Below the pieces are notes generated by a model that had not been told where the DNA came from, did not search any database, and saw only the letters and a list, made by a program, of their open reading frames with translations. Shown in pieces: positions 4,685 to 18,766 of a stretch of DNA of 64,000 bases. Source of the DNA: an uncultured bacterium (GTDB lineage Bacteria > Chlamydiota > Chlamydiia > Chlamydiales > SM23-39); contig OY970323.1 in the NCBI GenBank assembly GCA_963716985.1, forward strand, positions 160,001 to 224,000. Direction: 5' to 3'. The stretch's first letter is position 1. Each line of letters begins with the position of its first letter. The translations under genes and the position numbers were made by a program.

Positions 4685-4908
4685 CCTCCAATTTATCCTT
4701 CTTTCAAGGAGCTAATTTTTTTTTCGTGAGAAATTTTTGCTCCTGGCATGGTGAACCAGAAAAATTCCCACTACCTTTTGTTCTTAATTTAAATGATTAA
4801 AGTAATTTTTTGCAATATTTGAAGAAGCGCTAAGGTTTGTGTTTTTTTCTTCGATCTTCTAAAATAAGATCTTTCATTTTTCACTTCCTAAAAAATGGCG
4901 TTTTTTTT

Positions 4909-6159
4909 ATGGGGCTTTTCACCAATAGCTTTCAAGATGTGCAGAAGAGGATTTTGCTGTTTTTTTCTCTTATTTTTTTGTCAAGTCTTGGCATTTTTGG
5001 TCTTTGGATCCTTTTTCTGCCCAACGCCTCTCATCTCGCGCTTTCTTTTGCGCCAACGCATCTTTCGAACGAAAGTAGGCCGGGGAGTATTTTAGGAGGG
5101 GCTTTGTTCCTGCGCGCTTCCTCTTACACTCCTCAATTGCCCGATCTTTCCCGAGAAATGACAGTGACATGGGTCTTAGACCGTCCGGATCGAAAAGGGG
5201 CAAAAAGAGGGGAGGTTTTTTTATTGCGAAGCGGAGAAAAAAAGAGGGTGGAATTTTCCGAGCGGATCTTCTTCTTTTTTGGTGAAAATGATCTGCTGCA
5301 ATTTTCAAAAGAGCCCTCTCTTTTTTGGATGGAGATGCAAATCGCAGGAAAAGAAAAAGTCGAATGTAGAGCCGGAATTGGGGAAGAGGGAAAGTGGAGA
5401 GGCCTTCCTCTTATTACTACTTTTCAGATGCCGATGGCGGAAGAGAGGGCAAGTCAGGAAAAAAGCGAGGGGGTTTGTTTTCAAAAGATTGCAAAGGCCA
5501 AATGGCTCGGGGAAGATTTTCGCTCTTTTTATCAGCAGAAAAGCGGGGGCGAAAAGAAAAAGGAGCATCGATTAGAAATGGACGCGACATCGCTTCTTGT
5601 GAGCGAGGGGGACTGGCTCTCCTTTCAAGAGCAGAGCTGGAAAAAAATTTCTCAAAACGAGCCGACCGAAAACGATCCGCTTGGGGTCGTCGGGATGATC
5701 AAAGAGCAGCAGATGGAAATCGAGGTTTTTGATGAGACGGGGCACCGAGAAAATGTTCTCTTAAACAGGCAGGCTCCTCCCCTGTTCAAGACCAATCCAG
5801 ATGAGTGGATTGTTTCCGTTCGAGAAAGAGGCAAAGCATCTATTTCTCTTGGCCTTGAAAAGCAGCATTTTCTTTTTCACAAAGGAAGTTGGGCGGCGCG
5901 CAAAGAGGGACGTTGGAGAGTTGTGAAAGGAATCGCTTTGCAAAGGATTGCAGCGGAGGCCTTTTTTTTCTTTGAGGGCATGGAAGAGAGAGAGGGGCAA
6001 AAATGGATGAAGGGGGTTTTCTTCAATGGCAATGGCGTTGTGAAATGCCCTGTAGAAAAAAAATTCGTTTCCAAGAAAAAAAGAGTGCTTGGAGCAAAGA
6101 CATTGATCAGGGAAGAACTTACTAAAAAAGAAGAAAAAAAGTCAACCACCCCTCCCTAA
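4909..6159 (+). CDS. Chlamydial hypothetical protein preceding gspD; the last residues (STTPP) and stop come from the inserted IscB element
   Basis: Long ORF with N-terminal TM, first gene of the gsp operon; reads into GTCAACCACC at 6141. Confidence 0.7.
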   Translation: MGLFTNSFQDVQKRILLFFSLIFLSSLGIFGLWILFLPNASHLALSFAPTHLSNESRPGSILGGALFLRASSYTPQLPDLSREMTVTWVLDRPDRKGAKRGEVFLLRSGEKKRVEFSERIFFFFGENDLLQFSKEPSLFWMEMQIAGKEKVECRAGIGEEGKWRGLPLITTFQMPMAEERASQEKSEGVCFQKIAKAKWLGEDFRSFYQQKSGGEKKKEHRLEMDATSLLVSEGDWLSFQEQSWKKISQNEPTENDPLGVVGMIKEQQMEIEVFDETGHRENVLLNRQAPPLFKTNPDEWIVSVRERGKASISLGLEKQHFLFHKGSWAARKEGRWRVVKGIALQRIAAEAFFFFEGMEEREGQKWMKGVFFNGNGVVKCPVEKKFVSKKKRVLGAKTLIREELTKKEEKKSTTPP

Positions 6160-6395
6160 AGGGAGAGACTTGAGAATCAAGCCTGAAGTTGACCAGCCTT
6201 AGTCTTAAGGCAACTTGAGACTACGTTAGGAGCGAATATATAGGCGCCTTGGAATGCCGCCCCAGTTCCAAGCTCTGCGGTTAGCAGTTAAACCAAGCGT
6301 ACGGGTTAAACCAGTGCTGTTAACATGTAAAACCGCTCCATAACTTTGGCGAGGGGAACTTTACCCGGGAAACCGGAGATTGCAGGTAACTGCTA
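6141..6395 (+). ncRNA. omegaRNA (HEARO-like) scaffold for IscB
   Basis: About 250 nt non-coding structured region directly upstream of iscB. GTCAAC pairs with GTTGAC (6188); contains CTACGTT, the CTTGGAA...TTCCAAG stem and a TTGGCGAGGG block, as in IscB omegaRNAs. 3' boundary approximate. Confidence 0.85.
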
Positions 6396-6409
6396 TTAGA
6401 AATTTGTAT

Positions 6410-7738
6410 ATGCAAAAAATATTTGTATTAGACAAAAACAGAAAACCACTCATGCCCTGCTCGGCACAGAGAGCAAGGATGCTTTTGTCTTCAGGAAAAG
6501 CCGCTGTTTTAAAACGCTATCCTTTTACCATTATTCTTAAGGATAGAGAGTGTGGCGATGTACAAGATCTTGAGGTTAAAATTGATCCCGGAAGCAAAAC
6601 TTCCGGAATTGTTCTTGTTGGAAATTTTCTAAAAGGGAGAAAAGTTCTATGGGCAGCAAACCTTCAACATAGGGGAAATGCAATCTCATTATCACTTACC
6701 TCTAGAAGAGCATTGAGACGAAGCCGCCGTCATAGAAAAACACCCTATCGCGCCCCTCGATTTGATAATCGAAAACGAACAGATGGTTGGATTGCGCCTT
6801 CTTTGCAATCGAGAGTGGATCATATTCACACTTGGGTCTCCAGATTGCAGAGATGCTCTCCCATATCTTCCATCGCTGTAGAGACTGTACGTTTTGATAC
6901 GCAAAAATTGCAAAATCCGGAGATCTCCGGCATTCTCTATCAACAGGGAGAGTGCCTCGGCTACGAGATCAGGGAGTATCTTCTTGAAAAATGGGGGCGG
7001 AAATGCGCTTATTGCGGAAAAGAAAACACGCGATTAGAAATCGACCATATTGTTCCCAAAAGCCACGGCGGAAGCGATAGAGTCTCAAATCTCATCATCT
7101 CCTGCAAAGAATGCAATAGCAAAAAAGCAAACGGGGACATACAGGAGTTTTTAGAAAACAAGCCCGCTATTCTATCCAAAATTCTCACAAAGTCAAAAGT
7201 TTCACTAAGCGATGCTGCCGTAGTCAATGCGACGAGGGTAGCAATAGGCCGCGATCTTCGTTCCTTTAACCTTCCCCTCACATTTTGGAGCGGCGGTAGG
7301 ACAAAATTCAATAGAGTCAAACAATCGTACGAAAAAGACCACTGGATAGATGCTGCTTGTGTTGGAGAAACAGGAGAGTTCGTTCACATTGACAAAACAT
7401 TCTCCCCGCAAGTGATCAGGGAAACGGGAAAAGGCTGCCGCCAATTCTGCCTAATGGACCGATATGGATTTCCAAGGACGAGCGCCAAAAAGCAGAAAAG
7501 TGTCTATGGCTTCAAAACGGGAGACCTTGCCAGAGCCATTGTAACGAAAGGCAAAAAATCAGGGTGTTATCTTGGAAGGGTAGCCGTGAGGCTTTCGGGA
7601 AATTTTTGTTTTGACACCGCCGTCGGAAAAGTTGATGGCATTAACTATAGATACTGCCAAAATATACAGATGGCAGATGGTTACATTTATTCAATCAAGA
7701 AACCAAACAAAAGGAGCAGCGCTTCCTCCCACCCCTAA
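6410..7738 (+). CDS. iscB: RNA-guided endonuclease IscB (PLMP, split RuvC, HNH), 442 aa
   Basis: VLDKNRKPLMPC; RuvC-I IDPGSKTSG; Arg-rich bridge helix RRALRRSRR; RuvC-II VETVRFD; HNH CAYC..EIDHIVPKSHGG..SNL..CKECN; RuvC-III HWIDA. Confidence 0.95.
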   Translation: MQKIFVLDKNRKPLMPCSAQRARMLLSSGKAAVLKRYPFTIILKDRECGDVQDLEVKIDPGSKTSGIVLVGNFLKGRKVLWAANLQHRGNAISLSLTSRRALRRSRRHRKTPYRAPRFDNRKRTDGWIAPSLQSRVDHIHTWVSRLQRCSPISSIAVETVRFDTQKLQNPEISGILYQQGECLGYEIREYLLEKWGRKCAYCGKENTRLEIDHIVPKSHGGSDRVSNLIISCKECNSKKANGDIQEFLENKPAILSKILTKSKVSLSDAAVVNATRVAIGRDLRSFNLPLTFWSGGRTKFNRVKQSYEKDHWIDAACVGETGEFVHIDKTFSPQVIRETGKGCRQFCLMDRYGFPRTSAKKQKSVYGFKTGDLARAIVTKGKKSGCYLGRVAVRLSGNFCFDTAVGKVDGINYRYCQNIQMADGYIYSIKKPNKRSSASSHP

Positions 7739-7768
7739 AGGGATGGGTTTCCGCGCTGTCAAATTAGG

Positions 7769-9997
7769 ATGAAAAAGCTACTTTTTGCTCTAGTTTTCTT
7801 GGCCGCAGCTCTTTTTGCAAGTGAAGAGAACAATGCCCTTTTCGAAGAAAAAGCAGGCGTTTTGAATCAAGAATTGATGCAGCTTCGCTTTGAGCTGAAA
7901 GGGCATTATCAAAAAGCTGCACAACTTTTTGACAAGCACGCGGAAGAAAAGGAATATAAAGCTCTTCTTGAAACAATCAAAGAGACCAGGTCCAAGATCG
8001 AGGAAAAAGAAAAGTTGTGGCGCTCTTCTTTTATCGGAGGCAAGGAGAATAATGAGGAGGAGCCTTATGGCTTTTGGGATCAGGGAGAGACGACTCTTTC
8101 TCAGCTGATCATGGAATATGGGTCCTGCGATTTTCTCTACATTATCCCCTTGGAGATAGGTTCGATCAAAATTCATATGTGCTCGAATATTCCGATCCCT
8201 AAAGAGAGCTGGAATGAGATGATCGAGCTGATTCTTCTCCACAATGGAATCGGAATAAAAAAATTGGGCTCTTACTTGCGCCAGGTTTTTATTCTCAAAC
8301 ATGATCTGATGAATATTGAAGCGGTGGCCAAGTCGTTGGATGATTTGAAGCATCTCTCCGGCCTCTCTTCTGTTTTTTATGTCTTTTCCGCACCGTTGGA
8401 ACAGCTGCGCTCCGTGCAGGCTTTTTTTGAACGCTTTGCAGATCCCAAACAAACGACGATTCAGGTAGTAGGAAGCAAAATCGTTCTCATTGCCACGAAA
8501 GAATCCATTGAAAAATTATTGGAAATTTATAGCGTCATTTGGGGCAAAGAACAGGAAAAGATTGTGCGGATTTTTCCTTTAAAAAAGATCCAGGGAGCAG
8601 AGGCGGAAAAAATTTTGAAAACCTTTTTCCAAGAATCTGCAAGCAAAAACCGCCCTTCGTTTTACAATGCCCAGATCGAGGAGCTTACCATCATCTCTCT
8701 TCCTCCCGGCTCATCGCTTGTCTTGGTGGGCACGTTCGCTCTGGTAGAAAAAGCAGAAAAAATTTTGAAGGAGCTGGAGGAGGGGTTGCAAGAAAGCAGC
8801 GAGATGACCATTTTTTGGTATGCATGCAAACATTCGGCGCCTGAAGATTTGGCCCATATTTTGGAAGGGCTTTATTCCTCCATGAGCAAGAGCCCGTTTG
8901 CGGATGAAGAAAGGCCGTCTTCGGCCGAGGTTGGAGCGAATGCTCCCGATCTTCCCGTCTCCACTTCCTTCGTTCAACCGACAAAAATGGAGCAGCGCAA
9001 GGGTTTAGTAAAAGGAAATATCGTGGTCGACTCGAAGACGGGCTCTCTTTTTATGGCGGTGCGGAAAGAAGAATTGCCGAAAATACAGATGCTCTTGGAA
9101 AAGCTGGATGTCCCCAAAAAGATGGTGCAGATCGATGTGATGCTCATCGAAAAAAAACTTCTGGACCATAGCCAAACGGGCATTAATCTGCTCAAAATTG
9201 GATCCTCGCACAACGTAAAAGAAACCGCTCTTTCTTTTGACGGCTCTTCCAAAGCGAGCAAAAAGGGGATTTTAGATTTCATTCTCTCGCGCCCCAAGGG
9301 AACTCTTCCCTCGTTTGATCTTTTGGCAAGTTTTTTGATGGCGCAAGAAGATTTGCGCATCAATGCAAACCCCTCTGTTTTGGCCGTAAATCAAACCCCT
9401 GCCACGATTTCTATCGTAGAGGAAATCTCGATCAACAACGGCGCAATTCCCGTGGAGGCAGGGCAAAATAATTCCTATAAAAATTCTTATACGCGCGCCC
9501 AATATGGAATCCAGATTTCTCTTTTACCGATTATCCATCTATCCGAAGAAGAGGGAGAAAGGGGATTCATCACGATTCAGACCAAAGTGTCGTTTGACAC
9601 AACTCATGCATCTGAAGAGGATCGCCCGCCCGTGACGCGGCGTCAAATTGAAAATGAAGTTTGCGTCTCCGACGGGGAGACGATTATCCTTGGAGGGTTG
9701 AAAAGAAATTCGATCGAGGAGAATCGAGAAAAAATTCCATTTTTAGGAGACATTCCCGGCATCGGAAAGCTTTTTGGAACGAATAAAAGAAACAATAGCA
9801 CGACGGAAATGTTCATCTTCATCACGCCTCACATCGTGGGGGATACCAAAGAGGAGCAAAAAAAACTCAGGCAAGAGTCGCTGCAAAAAAGACCGGGAGA
9901 TCTTCCCGAGTTTCTCGAAAAACTCTACGAGGCAAAGGATTTGCAAAAGAAAAAGCTTTTTGAAAAAAGCTTAAGGCTCCTATGGGATCGAACCTAA
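7769..9997 (+). CDS. gspD: Type II secretion secretin GspD
   Basis: Signal peptide; LDVPKKMVQIDV; GETIILGGL; KIPFLGDIPGIGKLF; EMFIFITPHI. Confidence 0.93.
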   Translation: MKKLLFALVFLAAALFASEENNALFEEKAGVLNQELMQLRFELKGHYQKAAQLFDKHAEEKEYKALLETIKETRSKIEEKEKLWRSSFIGGKENNEEEPYGFWDQGETTLSQLIMEYGSCDFLYIIPLEIGSIKIHMCSNIPIPKESWNEMIELILLHNGIGIKKLGSYLRQVFILKHDLMNIEAVAKSLDDLKHLSGLSSVFYVFSAPLEQLRSVQAFFERFADPKQTTIQVVGSKIVLIATKESIEKLLEIYSVIWGKEQEKIVRIFPLKKIQGAEAEKILKTFFQESASKNRPSFYNAQIEELTIISLPPGSSLVLVGTFALVEKAEKILKELEEGLQESSEMTIFWYACKHSAPEDLAHILEGLYSSMSKSPFADEERPSSAEVGANAPDLPVSTSFVQPTKMEQRKGLVKGNIVVDSKTGSLFMAVRKEELPKIQMLLEKLDVPKKMVQIDVMLIEKKLLDHSQTGINLLKIGSSHNVKETALSFDGSSKASKKGILDFILSRPKGTLPSFDLLASFLMAQEDLRINANPSVLAVNQTPATISIVEEISINNGAIPVEAGQNNSYKNSYTRAQYGIQISLLPIIHLSEEEGERGFITIQTKVSFDTTHASEEDRPPVTRRQIENEVCVSDGETIILGGLKRNSIEENREKIPFLGDIPGIGKLFGTNKRNNSTTEMFIFITPHIVGDTKEEQKKLRQESLQKRPGDLPEFLEKLYEAKDLQKKKLFEKSLRLLWDRT

Positions 9998-13176: not shown

Positions 13177-13703
13177 TCCTCTTTCGGAAGATCGCTTTTT
13201 TCTCCCTGATGGAAATCCTCATCGTCCTCTCGCTGATCCTTCTTGTGGGCAGCGTTTCCACCTTTTATATGCATGATGCTTTGCGCCTGCGCCGTTTTGA
13301 AGCCAATCGCAAAAGCCTCCAATATATGATCTGCTTTTGTCGCGAGATGGCGATGACTCACCAAGTGGATATCCAATGGGTCATCGAACAGGATCTTCGC
13401 GTCCCTAATCTGGTTTGTCGGATTTTTTGTGAAGAGGATCAAAAAGCCCTTTTGTATTTTGCAAATAAAAAGAGTTCCTTTGCGCCTCTTTTTTTTGCCG
13501 GACCAAACAGTTCGCCTTCCTATGCGTGCACGTTTTATTCTTCCGGTTTTGTGGAAGCCAATATGCAGATTTCAGATGGGAAAAGAACATGTGCTCTTTC
13601 TTTTCCGTTTTTTATCAAACCAATCGATGGGTCCAAACCACCGCATCCTTTCTCATTTAAAAAAAAGAGAGAGGTTTTTTTTGTGCCCAATCGGGGATCC
13701 TAA
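13173..13703 (+). CDS. Minor pseudopilin-like protein
   Basis: FSLMEILIVLSLI type IV pilin-like N-terminus; ATGA overlap with the previous gene. Confidence 0.7.
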   Translation: MILFRKIAFFSLMEILIVLSLILLVGSVSTFYMHDALRLRRFEANRKSLQYMICFCREMAMTHQVDIQWVIEQDLRVPNLVCRIFCEEDQKALLYFANKKSSFAPLFFAGPNSSPSYACTFYSSGFVEANMQISDGKRTCALSFPFFIKPIDGSKPPHPFSFKKKREVFFVPNRGS

Positions 13704-14161
13704 AAATCCCCTTGTTAAAAAAAAATGTTTTTTATATACTAAACACACTTTTTTATTTACGAAGGAGGTTGAGAATATGTTTAAGCTTGTTGAAAGTGAT
13801 CGTCCGCCGTCAAATGTTACGGGGCTTCCCGGTATTGGTATTAGAGGAGAAATGGTGGTCTTTGGAGTTTTGGCGTGTGTTGGTATTGGCGCCATAGGAG
13901 CTCCGGCTGTAAGTGCTATAGGCGCCGGGGTTGGGATCCTTTACGCGGTTGGCAATGTGTACGACCGTATTATCGCAAAATGGGATGCGGACAGGACTGC
14001 GCAAAAAAAGGGTCGAACAAGTCCTTTGGGCATTTGTGCAATTTGTGTGATCGTTGCTGCCGGAACTACAGCTATTGTGAATTTTGTGAGTTTGAAAATT
14101 TTTGGGAATGGGTCTGATTCTCGAAAATCGTAGTCAATAACCGTTGTTTGTGTTTGAAGGA
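13517..14161 (+). repeat. Duplicated segment, copy 1 (pseudopilin 3' end + small membrane gene)
   Basis: Closely similar to 15348-15988 along its whole length. Confidence 0.9.
13777..14133 (+). CDS. Small Gly-rich membrane protein, paralog A1 (118 aa)
   Basis: AAGGAGG RBS then ATG 13777; hydrophobic hairpin plus C-terminal TM; paralog at 15604. Confidence 0.7.
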   Translation: MFKLVESDRPPSNVTGLPGIGIRGEMVVFGVLACVGIGAIGAPAVSAIGAGVGILYAVGNVYDRIIAKWDADRTAQKKGRTSPLGICAICVIVAAGTTAIVNFVSLKIFGNGSDSRKS

Positions 14162-15347: not shown

Positions 15348-15988
15348 TTCCTATGCGTGCACGTTTTACTCTTCCGGTTTTGTGGAAGCCAATATGCAGA
15401 TTTCAGATGGGAAAAGAACATGTGCTCTTTCTTTTCCGTTTTTTATCAAACCAATCGATGGGTCCAAACCACCGCATCCTTTCTCATTTAAAAAAAAGAG
15501 AAGTTTTTTTGTGCCGGATCGGGGATCCTAAAAATCCCCTTGTTAAAAAAAATGTTTTTTATATACTGAACCCGCTTTTTTATTTACAAAGGAGAGTGAG
15601 AGTATGTTTGTGTCTGTTGAGAGTGATCGTCCGCCGTCAAATGTTACGGGGCTTCCCGGTATTGGTATTAGAGGAGAAATGGTGGTCTTTGGGGTTTTGG
15701 CGGCTGTTGGTATTGGTGCCATAGGAGCTCCAGCTGTGAGTGCTATAGGAGTCGGGGCTGGGATCATTTATGCGGTTGGCAATGTATACAGCCGTATTAT
15801 CAAAAAATGGGATATGGAGAGGACTGCGCAAAAAAAGGGTCAAACAAGTCCTTTGGGCATTTGTGCAATTTGTGTGATCATTGCTGCCGGAACTGCAGCT
15901 GTTGTGAATTTTGTGAGTTTGAAAATTTTTGGGAACGGATCTGATTCTCGAAAATCGTAGTCAATAGCCGTTGTTTGTGTTTGAAGGA
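15348..15988 (+). repeat. Duplicated segment, copy 2
   Basis: Closely similar to 13517-14161. Confidence 0.9.
15604..15960 (+). CDS. Small Gly-rich membrane protein, paralog A2 (118 aa)
   Basis: AAGGAG RBS; same length as A1 and highly similar; frame intact in both. Confidence 0.7.
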   Translation: MFVSVESDRPPSNVTGLPGIGIRGEMVVFGVLAAVGIGAIGAPAVSAIGVGAGIIYAVGNVYSRIIKKWDMERTAQKKGQTSPLGICAICVIIAAGTAAVVNFVSLKIFGNGSDSRKS

Positions 15989-16121: not shown

Positions 16122-16168
16122 AAGTAGATGGCTTTTTGAAATTTTTCTTATCTCGATTTGGAGGGCTC

Positions 16169-18766
16169 ATGAAGAAGTTGATGATCTTTACTTTTCTTTT
16201 TTTTCTTTCACAGTTTCTCTTCGCTGAAGATCTAGCGGGATTAAAACCAAGACAGCCCAATTGGCGGTCCGACACGGTTTCGATTCATCCGAATGGAAAT
16301 CCCAAAGAGGTTATTTTTTATGAACCAACTCTTGAGGGAAAGGAAATTCCCGTAAAAAAGGTCACGTTTTATGAGGGGAGTGCGATTGCACAAGAAGTGG
16401 ATTTGATTCAGGTAGAAAAAGATTCTCCGGCTTATCAAAAATGGTCCTTTCCATTGGTCCCAAACGGAAGATGCGTGGATCTCTTTGAATCCGGCAAAGT
16501 GCAAAAGGTTTCTTTCTATGACAAAGGGTTTTTGGAAGGAGAAGTGATTGGCTATCATTCGAATGGAAACATCGCTTCCAAGTTTTTCTATCAATCAGGA
16601 GAACTTTCGGGACATTATGAGACTTGCTATGAAGAGGGGGGAAAAAAGGAGGAGGGGAGTTATAGCAGAGGGAAGCTTGTCTCGGAAAAGGTGGCCTACA
16701 CTCCCGCGCAGGAAAAAGTCTCGCTTTATACCTATGTGGATGGTCTTTTGGAGGGAAAGGGAACCGAGTGGTATCCCAACGGAGGCGTCAAAAACGAATC
16801 CTACTATCATCAAGGATTGTTGCATGGAAATGAGAAGAATCCCGCCTTCATTTTTTATGATGAGAAGCACGCGATCTTAGAAGTGCTCGATTTTAGGGAA
16901 GGAAAAGCTACGGGCCTTCATATCAAATACCATCCTAACGGCAAAGAGAGTTATCGCGTCCTTTATAAAGAAGGGAAGAAAGAGGGAAAAGAGTACTTTT
17001 TTTCTCCCGAGGGAAAGATTATTGGTGCGGGAGAATTTCAATCGGGCAAAGCGATCGGGAAGCATGATCTTCACCATCCGAATGGAAAGCTTTTCTATGA
17101 AAAGGTCTATGACTCTTCGGGAAATCTCCTTCGTCCCATTGTGGAATATGATGCGGAAGGAAATAAGGTAAGAGAATACTCCCTTAAAGAAGAGCGTCTT
17201 GAAGGGAAATATTGGGAATATCAAGAAAAAGGAGCGCTCCGTTTGGAGCATTTTTATTCAGAGGGACAATTGCAAGGGGAGCAAAAGGAGTTTTTTCCCT
17301 CCGGGCAGATAAAAATTCGCTGTTTTTACAAAGACAATAAACGAGACGGTCTTTATGAAGAATGGCATGAAAATGGAACGTTGATCGCAAAAATGAACTT
17401 CAAAGATGACCGGATGGATGGAGTTTCTCAAGAATGGTTTGCTTCCGGCAAGCGCAAAAGAGAGTCCTGTTTTTCTAAAGGAAGCCCCACCGAAAGATTT
17501 TCTGAATGGTTTGAAAATGAAAAAGAAAAGCTTGTGATGGAATGGAAAGAGGGAAAGAAATTGGGAATACATAAGATTTGGGATGAACAGGGAGACTTGC
17601 TCTTGGATGCTCAATATAAGGAGGATCTGTTGGACGGAGATTGTTTTTCTTGGTTCTCCAAGGGAAAGCCAAAAGAAAAACTTCATTATGAAATGGGCAA
17701 GATGCATGGAAAACAAGAGTGGTTCTACCCGAACGGAAACAAACAGAGGGTTGCTTTTTACGACCATGACCTTTTCGATCAGAGACTGCAGGCATGGTAT
17801 GAGGATGGGTCGGAACATCTCGATCAGACCTTTTCTAAAGGCCGGCCTATCGGAGATCAGCATGACTATTATCCCCCCTCTTTTTGCGAACATTCACAGA
17901 GCAAACAGCACGTTCGATGGTTTCACTATGATGACGAGGGAAAAATGCAGGGAGAGCAGAAGACCTTTTTCCCCAACGGAAAGGTCGAAGCGCTTGTGAC
18001 CTACGAGCATGGAGAGCTTCACGGAGTGAAATCCCTTTGGGACCGCGAAGGCAATCTTCTCGAACAGGCGACTTACGCAAAAGGAAAGCTTGAAGGAGAG
18101 TTTTTTCAAAAGCTTCCTGACGGAAGAGAGGTCTATTTCACCTATAAAAACAATTTCAAAAACGGCCCGCATCGTATTTTTTATCCGCAGCAAAAAGAAA
18201 AGGAGAGAATCAAGGCAATCCAGGCAAATTATAAAGATGATCTCTTGGACGGAAAGGTAGAAGAGTATAATCCAGAGGGAGTTTTGATGGCCGAATCCCT
18301 CTATTGCAAGGGAAAAAGGGAGGGGCTCACAACGCTTTTCTCTCCCCAGGGAAAGAAATGGATGACGGTCGCATTCAAAGGGGATGTAAAAGAGGGGCCA
18401 TGCACGGAGTATTCTCCCGAGGGAAAAATTCTCAAAGAGGTTACTTTTGTCAACGACCTGAAAGAGGGCGAGGAAAAATCTTTCTTCCCTAGCGGGTCTA
18501 AAGCCTCTCTCTCCATTTATAAAAAGGGACTTTTGGAGGACAAAAGCTTCTATTGGAACGAAAAGGGAGTCCTTGTTTTCGAAGGAGCCTACCAAGCCGG
18601 CAAGCGTCATGGGAAGATGATGAAATATAATGAAGAGGGAAAGCCTATTCTGGAACAAAATTTCTTGAACGACGAGCTCCATGGAGTCAAAAAGAAATAT
18701 GAGAAATCGGGAGAGGTTTTTCAGGTTTTCTATGACCATGGAAATAAGGTAGAAAAGAAGAAATAA
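16169..18766 (+). CDS. Exported MORN-variant repeat (YwqK-like) protein
   Basis: Signal peptide MKKLMIFTFLFF..AE; many G-x-x-x-G...Y-x-x-N-G repeats across about 865 aa. Confidence 0.85.
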   Translation: MKKLMIFTFLFFLSQFLFAEDLAGLKPRQPNWRSDTVSIHPNGNPKEVIFYEPTLEGKEIPVKKVTFYEGSAIAQEVDLIQVEKDSPAYQKWSFPLVPNGRCVDLFESGKVQKVSFYDKGFLEGEVIGYHSNGNIASKFFYQSGELSGHYETCYEEGGKKEEGSYSRGKLVSEKVAYTPAQEKVSLYTYVDGLLEGKGTEWYPNGGVKNESYYHQGLLHGNEKNPAFIFYDEKHAILEVLDFREGKATGLHIKYHPNGKESYRVLYKEGKKEGKEYFFSPEGKIIGAGEFQSGKAIGKHDLHHPNGKLFYEKVYDSSGNLLRPIVEYDAEGNKVREYSLKEERLEGKYWEYQEKGALRLEHFYSEGQLQGEQKEFFPSGQIKIRCFYKDNKRDGLYEEWHENGTLIAKMNFKDDRMDGVSQEWFASGKRKRESCFSKGSPTERFSEWFENEKEKLVMEWKEGKKLGIHKIWDEQGDLLLDAQYKEDLLDGDCFSWFSKGKPKEKLHYEMGKMHGKQEWFYPNGNKQRVAFYDHDLFDQRLQAWYEDGSEHLDQTFSKGRPIGDQHDYYPPSFCEHSQSKQHVRWFHYDDEGKMQGEQKTFFPNGKVEALVTYEHGELHGVKSLWDREGNLLEQATYAKGKLEGEFFQKLPDGREVYFTYKNNFKNGPHRIFYPQQKEKERIKAIQANYKDDLLDGKVEEYNPEGVLMAESLYCKGKREGLTTLFSPQGKKWMTVAFKGDVKEGPCTEYSPEGKILKEVTFVNDLKEGEEKSFFPSGSKASLSIYKKGLLEDKSFYWNEKGVLVFEGAYQAGKRHGKMMKYNEEGKPILEQNFLNDELHGVKKKYEKSGEVFQVFYDHGNKVEKKK

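Follow-up and report, generated by a model that had tools for sequence, protein, structure and literature searches.

In the window, a 64,000-nucleotide stretch from the genome of an uncultured Chlamydiales bacterium (lineage SM23-39), an IscB transposon is inserted immediately 5' of the ATGAA at the start of a gspD-like secretin gene. On balance, we favour the view that copies of this element are likely found at gene starts because the ATGAA sites there spare genes and are transcribed, and that the end of the element likely re-supplies a ribosome-binding site to the following gene through a folded, split Shine-Dalgarno (SD) sequence.

An IscB transposon inserted at a start codon

The element (Table 1) is recognised by (i) a match to the full Rfam HEARO model (cut-off 83 bits) whose first base is also the first base of the element, (ii) a protein scoring 437.7 bits on NCBIfam guided_IscB (NF040563, cut-off 175) and matching IscB entries of the PDB, in which the RuvC-I (KIDPG), RuvC-II (AVETV), HNH (IDHIV) and RuvC-III (DHWIDA) motifs all appear intact on inspection, and (iii) a second full copy in the genome (C1:1818584-1820215), 96.5% identical and with both ends in common with the window copy.

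The original prediction, made from the window alone, placed the element exactly at an ATGA stop/start overlap of the gsp operon with both host genes left intact, and alignment to a relative without the element bears this out. In a genome of the same genus (G001), the orthologue of the upstream gene (50% identity) ends at the ATGA overlap and runs directly into gspD; the first base of the element aligns with the position of the ATGA and there is no target duplication. With the element in place, the final Lys codon of the upstream gene still encodes Lys and is followed by five codons (STTPP) and then by TAA (6157-6159), which the loop of the right-end hairpin supplies, while the gspD ATG is retained. 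Sixteen of a further 22 relatives, taken from 29 non-self loci because their start and upstream DNA were readable, retain the overlap. The G001 empty site of a 353-bp mini-copy agrees with the element ends to the base, and a third G001 site agrees to within a few bases. G001 yielded neither the element or HEARO nor an empty site for the second full copy; as this genome is a draft in 50 contigs, only bridged empty sites count. The gspD-like protein scores 203 bits on TIGR02517, under the cut-off of 351.

ATGA follows 22 of the 23 element ends in the genome (ATGAA in 19 of these 22), so insertion at ATGA is not a matter of chance and the predicted target, ATGA(A), is upheld. Loose contig ends from four DNA runs show further ATGAAA flanks. 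Among the contigs of these runs, two records span the element/gspD boundary and none shows a joint across the element; since contigs can attest only presence, the missing joint says nothing on excision.

The crossed pairing of IS608, which includes a fourth-base pair, is fitted by the guide/cleavage-motif pairs GAAA/TCAT and CAAG/TGAC in DNA folds of both ends. In the inner hairpin wobble pairs are tolerated on the minus strand (49:6), which is not so in the outer stem (6:10; p 8e-5). The Y1_Tnp profile matches at three genome sites, none of them tied to the element ends by BLAST or profile. The candidates for a cognate TnpA, at C1:757416 and C1:1970077 (IS200-like) and in a broken tnpA-tnpB pair around C1:55-56.5 kb, do not share their ends with the element and were rejected; a TnpA with ends matching the element was not identified in the genome.

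Table 1. Features at the insertion site (window coordinates).
Feature	Position	Strand	Remarks
Upstream gsp-operon gene	4837..6159	+	440 aa; without a Pfam/NCBIfam family; the element supplies its final five codons and stop
omegaRNA guide (predicted)	6121..6140	+	host flank 5' of the element, placed from the architecture that Meers et al. give for IscB; length provisional
IscB element (ISC-type, IS200/IS605 family), non-autonomous	6141..7768	+	1628 bp; no target duplication
HEARO / omegaRNA scaffold	6141..6364	+	Rfam RF02033, 128 bits, E 3.6e-26
IS200/IS605 right end	6141..6172	-	cleavage motif TGAC (6141-6144); subterminal hairpin; predicted DNA guide CAAG (6169-6172); pairing pattern as in IS608
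iscB	6410..7738	+	442 aa; Pfam RRXRR and HNH
SD-like AAGGAG	7711..7716	+	5' foot of outer stem
Outer 6-bp stem around inner hairpin	7717..7758	+	predicted fold -23.7 kcal/mol, z -2.36
IS200/IS605 left end	7728..7751	-	subterminal hairpin 7728-7747 (DNA fold); predicted DNA guide GAAA (7748-7751), which would pair with target TCAT
Target and likely TAM, ATGAA	7769..7773	+	also the gspD start codon
Secretin gene (gspD-like)	7769..9997	+	742 aa; Pfam Secretin and Secretin_N; followed by gspE- and gspF-like genes

Most copies in the genome open genes

Across the genome, 20 of the 23 element ends open a called gene of at least 79 aa, and 16 do so under a strict first-ATG rule, as compared with 24.6% among tolerated ATGAA sites (p 7e-6), gene starts being those of a simple in-house caller (83% coding). 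A Pfam domain is matched from near its first position in 13 of the 19 downstream ORFs scanned, which shows that these 13 are not truncated. Additional ends, in metagenomes and in the same phylum, were located by a pattern containing neither SD nor ATGA; the same-phylum ends are kin, so their counts are not independent. ATGA follows the end at 97 of 117 loci in metagenomes and at 29 of 30 in the same phylum. The frame beginning at the ATG stays open for at least 75 codons at 37 of 85 metagenome ends (background 22.5%) and at 23 of 28 same-phylum ends (background 18.7%), the other two frames at only 5 and 8 of the 85 and 1 and 2 of the 28; 48 of the 85 metagenome ends open no 75-codon frame. Among 8 annotated plasmid copies examined, out of 112 records, only two end at an annotated start, one probably does and one appears to split a gene. 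The enriched class consists of start codons of any kind, not of overlaps specifically, and the gspD ATGA overlap is one ordinary case of start-codon insertion.

A passive filter, in which the copies that remain are those that spare genes and are transcribed, explains most of this pattern. When the background is made up of starts plus sense sites at most 100 nt from a start (67%), the excess is nearly gone (p 0.48 for 16/23, p 0.026 for 20/23).

A candidate split Shine-Dalgarno at the element's end

The site had also been predicted to be near-neutral for the host, an account that proves incomplete. The empty gspD start has an RBS score of 0 and no SD in our own RBS scan, and presumably relied on translational coupling that the insertion broke; a neutral insertion would then require a new initiation signal, which the prediction did not name.

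The end of the element offers a candidate. An SD-like GGAG lies 52 nt 5' of the gspD AUG, a distance that the predicted fold cuts to 10 nt, which is at the long end, host SDs having a mode of 6-7 nt. The folded GGAG-AUG spacing is 8-9 nt in 21 of 24 same-phylum ends and spreads over 7-15 nt in metagenome ends. An SD-like motif is found directly 5' of the stem in 52 of 98 metagenome and 27 of 29 same-phylum ends, against 12-19 of 98 and 0-3 of 29 in control windows; 46 of the 98 metagenome ends have no SD, and 22 of 46 ends with an SD have no long frame. Presence of the motif is associated with a long downstream frame in metagenome ends (p 0.023), in same-phylum ends (p 0.026) and in the genome itself (19/20 vs 1/3, p 0.034), although each of these associations is marginal. 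On the predicted folds, the element's end would likely give the displaced gene a new ribosome-binding site. Against this, roughly half of the GGAG is predicted to be base-paired (0.51 in the window copy), and at 52 nt (about -24 kcal/mol) the looped-out stretch exceeds those of the bacteriophage T4 cases discussed below (22-27 nt). Two other ideas were rejected: a conserved 3'-end mini-ORF re-creating coupling, as frames vary among copies, and the derivation of AGGAG from coding constraint on the IscB C-terminus, as the motif is kept in protein-less copies and the position of the IscB stop varies.

The passive filter might also operate alone, which we consider unlikely. ATGAA targeting, purifying selection and retention through guide transcription would then set the positions, the GGAG would be kept for DNA-level or ancestral reasons (e.g. 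pairing with the adjacent TTCCTCC, or contact with TnpA), and translation of downstream genes would be weak, relying on the terminal AGG or on reinitiation after iscB. Such a filter matches the start-codon counts by itself; AGGAG can pair with TTCCT six bases 3', and copy C1:1951469 folds in this way; and the GGAG is kept even in a tRNA-adjacent copy. As for reinitiation, the iscB stop lies just 30 nt 5' of the gspD AUG, and in relatives L049, L051, L075, L076, L078 and L287 it is, or abuts, the target TGA. Weighing against this account are an SD 3-4-fold above neighbouring windows in diverse metagenome ends with differing stems, and the way the motif tracks an open downstream frame at a usable folded distance. 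Moreover, the copies that precede rpsF, adk and a FliH/SctL-family gene are mini-copies without iscB, so that reinitiation after iscB is impossible there.

The least probable reading is active steering, in which the ATGA target would direct the element to coupled stop/start overlaps, as originally predicted, or integration would prefer translation-initiation regions. Overlaps do recur (three in the genome, others in L049, L050 and L052 and at a Deinococcus parA/parB junction), with a point estimate (27-30%) that lies above the 17% background, operon-internal sites make up 6/10 against a 34% background (p 0.08), and 11 of 17 ends bring a stop five codons into the overlap frame from their 5' end. 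Nevertheless, the expected enrichment at ATGA overlaps across genome copies is not significant, whether counted on reconstructable start-codon copies (3/10 vs 65/378 ATGAA starts; p=0.24) or pooled (6/22, p=0.16). Seven of the ten start-codon copies are not at overlaps, another copy stands before a tRNA-like gene, the L051 and L281 copies split genes, the early stop is a conserved hairpin loop, and the IS608 pairing rule, as far as it is set out in PMC3201880, yields the target without reference to translation; steering is very improbable.

A model for insertion, retention and translation

The favoured combination of passive retention and a re-supplied ribosome-binding site may be set out as follows. 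The boundaries, the absence of duplication, the ATGA(A) target and the two open frames are observed. By analogy with IS608, a TnpA acting in trans would select the minus-strand TCAT through the element's GAAA guide, a step containing nothing that reads "start codon". A host promoter would transcribe the flank and the omegaRNA, IscB would cut the empty junction beside ATGAA, and repair would reinstall the element, as the available text of Meers et al. describes for a related system; transcribed sense copies would then persist and others be lost. That the host transcribes the guide, as predicted, is consistent with our promoter scan, which found no promoter-like site above shuffles on the + strand between 4550 and 7900. 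The survivors lie at start codons, as shown statistically. Finally, in the modelled fold, the outer stem would close on the mRNA and leave about 8-10 nt between GGAG and the AUG, making up for the lost coupling or for a displaced host SD.

It is tempting to speculate, more tentatively, that ATGA-type IS200/IS605 elements have a dual-use left end: on one strand a TnpA-binding hairpin choosing ATGAA, on the other a portable folded ribosome-binding site for the following host gene. The element would occupy a start-codon niche, where it has its guide RNA transcribed from a borrowed host promoter and repays the host with a ribosome-binding site, and would be self-neutralising in the manner of IStrons, but at translation initiation. 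A working split site would explain how a DNA transposon that does not splice itself out comes to stand before essential genes (rpsF, adk, ruvC, secretion operons). It would also supply a selective rationale for the ATGAA TAM class of IscB, imply that the host gene's translation rate is reset at every insertion, and provide a compact part combining ribosome-binding site and transposon end. If the split site fails, the insertion is a clean yet ordinary case of a known target motif plus selection.

Relation to known systems

Several of these properties are already published, namely the N|ATGA target (Kapitonov 2016) and, for an IscB, the TTCAT TAM and dependence on host transcription (Meers 2023); the original prediction had put forward the target and the host-promoter dependence as inferences. 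We found no publication on a start-codon preference or a transposon-borne SD, although earlier IscB/HEARO papers or supplements may mention start codons, and no printed precedent for a folded split SD at an element's end; the available text of PMC2775950, PMC13565253 and PMC13180657 mentions neither.

Like ISC1-1_MA, ISC2-1_HM and ISC2-1_MS (Kapitonov, Makarova, Koonin 2016, PMC4810608), the window element is non-autonomous, encodes IscB, starts with 5'-GTCA and has palindromic ends; ISC transposons as described there also insert 5' of ATGA without duplication, with empty sites as proof. In the main text of that paper, the terms "start codon", "stop codon" and "initiation codon" are absent, and the passages available describe no SD-plus-stem end. 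A functional parallel is ISGst5/GstIscB of Geobacillus stearothermophilus (Meers et al., 10.1101/2023.03.14.532601), which was shown to cut the empty site beside the TAM under RNA guidance. Its TAM, TTCAT, common to transposase and nuclease, is ATGAA on the other strand, making the predicted TAM, ATGA(A), likely by analogy. The two systems further resemble each other in a guide drawn from outside the element (predicted here), an orientation bias relative to the upstream gene and protein-less PATE-like derivatives, and cleavage of the donor joint would be a further common trait. They differ in that the bias reported for ISGst5 concerns the upstream gene only: in the text available, the sole "start codon" is that of iscB itself, and neither a downstream host start codon nor a transposon-borne ribosome-binding site is mentioned.

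At the DNA level, the ends resemble those of IS608 (He et al. 2011, PMC3201880, as far as described there) in their subterminal hairpins with T-rich tips, in a four-base guide at the 5' foot that pairs with the cleavage site, and in an AG on the 3' side of the hairpin, matching that of the right-end base triples. Unlike IS608, the element targets TCAT/TTCAT rather than TTAC, has an extra outer stem and SD-like motif, and carries IscB in place of TnpA/TnpB. At the RNA level, the parallel is with T4 genes 25 and 38 (PMC3014915, in the part available), where a stem between SD and AUG shortens the distance from 27 to 11 and from 22 to 5 nt. In contrast to these phage genes, the predicted spacer here would be 52 nt long, would itself be the end of a transposon and would serve any host gene that follows.

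Results

By every sequence feature tested, the element between the upstream host gene and the secretin gene gspD is a bona fide ISC/IscB element: it carries HEARO and IscB matches well above cut-off (see table), and the RuvC and HNH motifs of IscB appear intact on inspection. The window corresponds to C1:160001-224000 of a single-contig genome of 2.07 Mb. Gene content and the nearest IscB relatives by identity, which include Rhabdochlamydiaceae (70%) and a Chlamydiia MAG (58%), among others, indicate that the host is probably an environmental chlamydia. A second full copy at C1:1818584-1820215 of this genome is 96.5% identical in DNA, has 425 of 442 residues the same and shares both ends. The element boundaries in the original prediction were exact, as judged from the HEARO start and from the empty site of G001, a same-genus draft genome in which the upstream gene (50% identical) joins the secretin gene via an ATGA overlap: in the alignment, the first base of the element falls at the position of this ATGA, with no duplication. 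The overlap is retained in 16 of the 22 further relatives scored. The predicted guide has a second, ATGAAA-flanked match at C1:1786587 (+), with 2 mismatches in 16 and the 9 TAM-proximal bases perfect, possibly a case of self-targeting; 11 more ATGA sites match it with 3 mismatches.

Features of the window (window positions)
Feature	Position	Details
Predicted guide	6125-6140	A-rich
HEARO (Rfam)	6141-6364	whole model length matched, 128 bits vs cut-off 83
New stop of upstream gene, filled site	6157-6159	TAA, after STTPP; last Lys codon still Lys
iscB ORF	6410-7738	NCBIfam guided_IscB 437.7 bits (cut-off 175); RRXRR and HNH domains; stop 30 nt upstream of AUG
SD-like AAGGAG	7711-7716	upstream of stem-loop
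Stem-loop	7717-7758	-23.7 kcal/mol, z -2.36; then 10 nt to AUG
Secretin (gspD) start, filled site	7769	
Duplicated stretch	13429-14133 and 15353-15960	after pilin-like genes, ~1.8 kb apart, high similarity; gsp cluster end plus 118-aa membrane ORF
Repeat ORF	16136-18766	876 aa, many short MORN-like repeats (by eye)

The genome holds 11 HEARO matches and 23 right-hand ends (the best profile matches, E <=0.0016, three weaker ones being left out). These ends are followed by ATGA in 22 cases, ATGAA in 19 and ATGAAA in 16, and their ATGA flanks are richer in A than ATGA start codons generally (p 0.001 and 1e-5). Eleven copies have both ends: two are full and nine short; of the latter, eight lack iscB sequence and one has an internal deletion. 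Empty sites in G001 confirmed the boundaries of a 353-bp copy to the base and agreed within a few bases with those of a 360-bp copy; that of the second full copy was looked for in G001 and not found, nor was any TnpA with ends matching the element family found in the genome.

Several copies show further peculiarities. The iscB-less mini-copies L001, L003, L005, L006, L008 and L009 bear a G/C hairpin between the omegaRNA and the right-hand end; it is mostly T-tailed and terminator-like, yet genes such as rpsF stand downstream. L003 (C1:1919223, minus strand) lies 6 nt before a tRNA-Glu-like gene (by eye) and at no protein start. L006 and L008 have the same ends and a different omegaRNA subtype, which suggests one transposase system common to two IscB lineages. 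Two divergent mini-copies with L005-type ends (C1:1002778 and C1:1003298) lie 350 bp apart, and a single metagenome contig has two ends (L146/L147) ~890 bp apart. Right-hand ends with ATGAAA flanks in DNA runs X2 and X4 are absent from the genome's 23 sites, which shows additional insertions in related strains. At locus L043 (1100-1480), an IS200-like tnpA match is preceded by sequence resembling a group II intron 3' end and by a reverse-transcriptase-like tail.

At 20 of the 23 ends the downstream ATG begins a called gene encoding 79-742 aa, the three exceptions having frames of only 9, 28 and 40 codons; it is the caller's own start at 15 ends, and 16 follow a strict first-ATG rule. Among all ATGAA sites 5.2% are start-like, a share that rises to 24.6% for those outside genes or at starts (approximate rates, since the caller is a hexamer model, with 1693 genes and 83% coding), and against the latter background 16/23 gives p 7e-6. 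Among 19 downstream ORFs scanned, 13 matched a Pfam domain from profile position 1-13 and six had no Pfam match; the domains include S6, adenylate kinase, RuvC, FKBP, SDR and NamZ.

Steering of the element specifically to coupled gene overlaps, as originally proposed, was not borne out: overlaps account for 3 of 10 reconstructable start-codon copies vs 65 of 378 ATGAA starts (p 0.24), and for 6 of 22 when 12 copies from other genomes are pooled in (p 0.16). Several non-overlap copies sit between a host Shine-Dalgarno (SD) sequence and the ATG. The gspD overlap is a single instance of a wider start-codon bias. When the reference set is restricted to gene-sparing sites that lie in sense orientation no more than 100 nt from a start, 67% of which are themselves starts, the excess largely vanishes (p 0.48 for 16/23, p 0.026 for 20/23). 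A passive filter therefore almost suffices; the bias is mostly the result of the known motif, selection and the known promoter dependence.

Beyond this genome, a search pattern made of the inner hairpin and its flanks only, excluding SD and ATGA, matched 62 of 401 phylum genomes (reversed control, 0) and 122 stretches in 1/64 of a metagenome collection; the phylum sample was 30 loci, one per genome, and the 154 matches in all included five too short and two duplicates. ATGA follows the pattern by 10-17 nt at 97/117 metagenome and 29/30 phylum ends. The ATG frame is open for >=75 codons in 37/85 metagenome cases vs 163/723 in the background and in 23/28 phylum cases vs 118/630, the counts for the other two frames being 5 and 8 of 85, and 1 and 2 of 28; the start preference is therefore strong within the phylum and moderate elsewhere. 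Of eight annotated plasmid copies examined among 112 records, seven are ATGA-type: a Deinococcus copy at a parA/parB overlap (annotated start at the end, stop supplied by the element), a Polaromonas copy at traD/DUF4400 (annotated start at the end), one probably at a start and four not, one of which apparently splits a gene.

A scan found no SD at the empty gspD junction, where gspD presumably depended on translational coupling, which a 1.6 kb insert would abolish. An SD-like motif lies 4-22 nt upstream of the pattern at 52/98 metagenome and 27/29 phylum ends, vs 12-19/98 and 0-3/29 for three control windows placed upstream and 6 and 0 for the opposite strand; about half of the metagenome ends are without it. 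Its presence goes with a long downstream frame in the metagenome (24/46 vs 9/33, p 0.023), the phylum (23/26 vs 0/2, p 0.026) and the own genome (19/20 vs 1/3, p 0.034), counts in which related ends are not mutually independent. Fold prediction closes the outer stem in 27/29 phylum ends; unlike the inner hairpin (p 8e-5 for the difference), this stem shows no excess of wobble pairs on the minus strand (6 vs 10). Collapsing the stem would leave GGAG 8-9 nt from the AUG in 21/24 phylum ends and 7-15 nt in 33/34 metagenome ends; the host-gene spacing mode is 6-7, the caller itself favouring 4-12. According to the predicted fold, the SD is itself roughly half paired; the adjoining TTCCT could be an alternative pairing partner.

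In full-length relatives L049, L051, L075, L076, L078 and L287, the iscB stop is the target TGA or abuts the ATG, and iscB also reads through to the element end in Thermoplasmata. Judging from these sequences, such a stop is a second route to re-created coupling, from host gene to iscB.

Discussion

What the original prediction put forward on TAM, donor-joint target and dependence on the host promoter is likely right but not new, because the available texts already report it for ISC elements and GstIscB: insertion between N and ATGA without duplication (PMC4810608), a measured TAM of TTCAT, the reverse complement of ATGAA, IscB guides that need transcription entering from the flanking DNA, and an element orientation the same as that of the upstream gene (bioRxiv 10.1101/2023.03.14.532601). 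The candidate novelty is a transposon-borne split ribosome-binding site, predicted from the fold and from end conservation; a literature search of the available main texts found no paper describing one. T4 genes 25 and 38 have split sites of such a kind (PMC3014915, available text), and the spacer here is twice the T4 length.

Across distinct inner hairpins, G:T pairs occur 49 times on the minus strand and 6 times on the plus strand, a bias expected if the transposase substrate is the minus strand. Read on this strand, the gspD-side end has the TCAT target, GAAA at the hairpin 5' foot, a TTTA tip and AG at the 3' foot; at the other end CAAG precedes the hairpin and the terminus is TGAC. The crossed pairing of IS608 includes a fourth-base pair. 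As described in the available text of PMC3201880, guide bases 1-2 of IS608 pair with cleavage-site positions -3 and -4 and AG forms base triples, and the ends of the window element fit this crossed pairing between guide and cleavage site.
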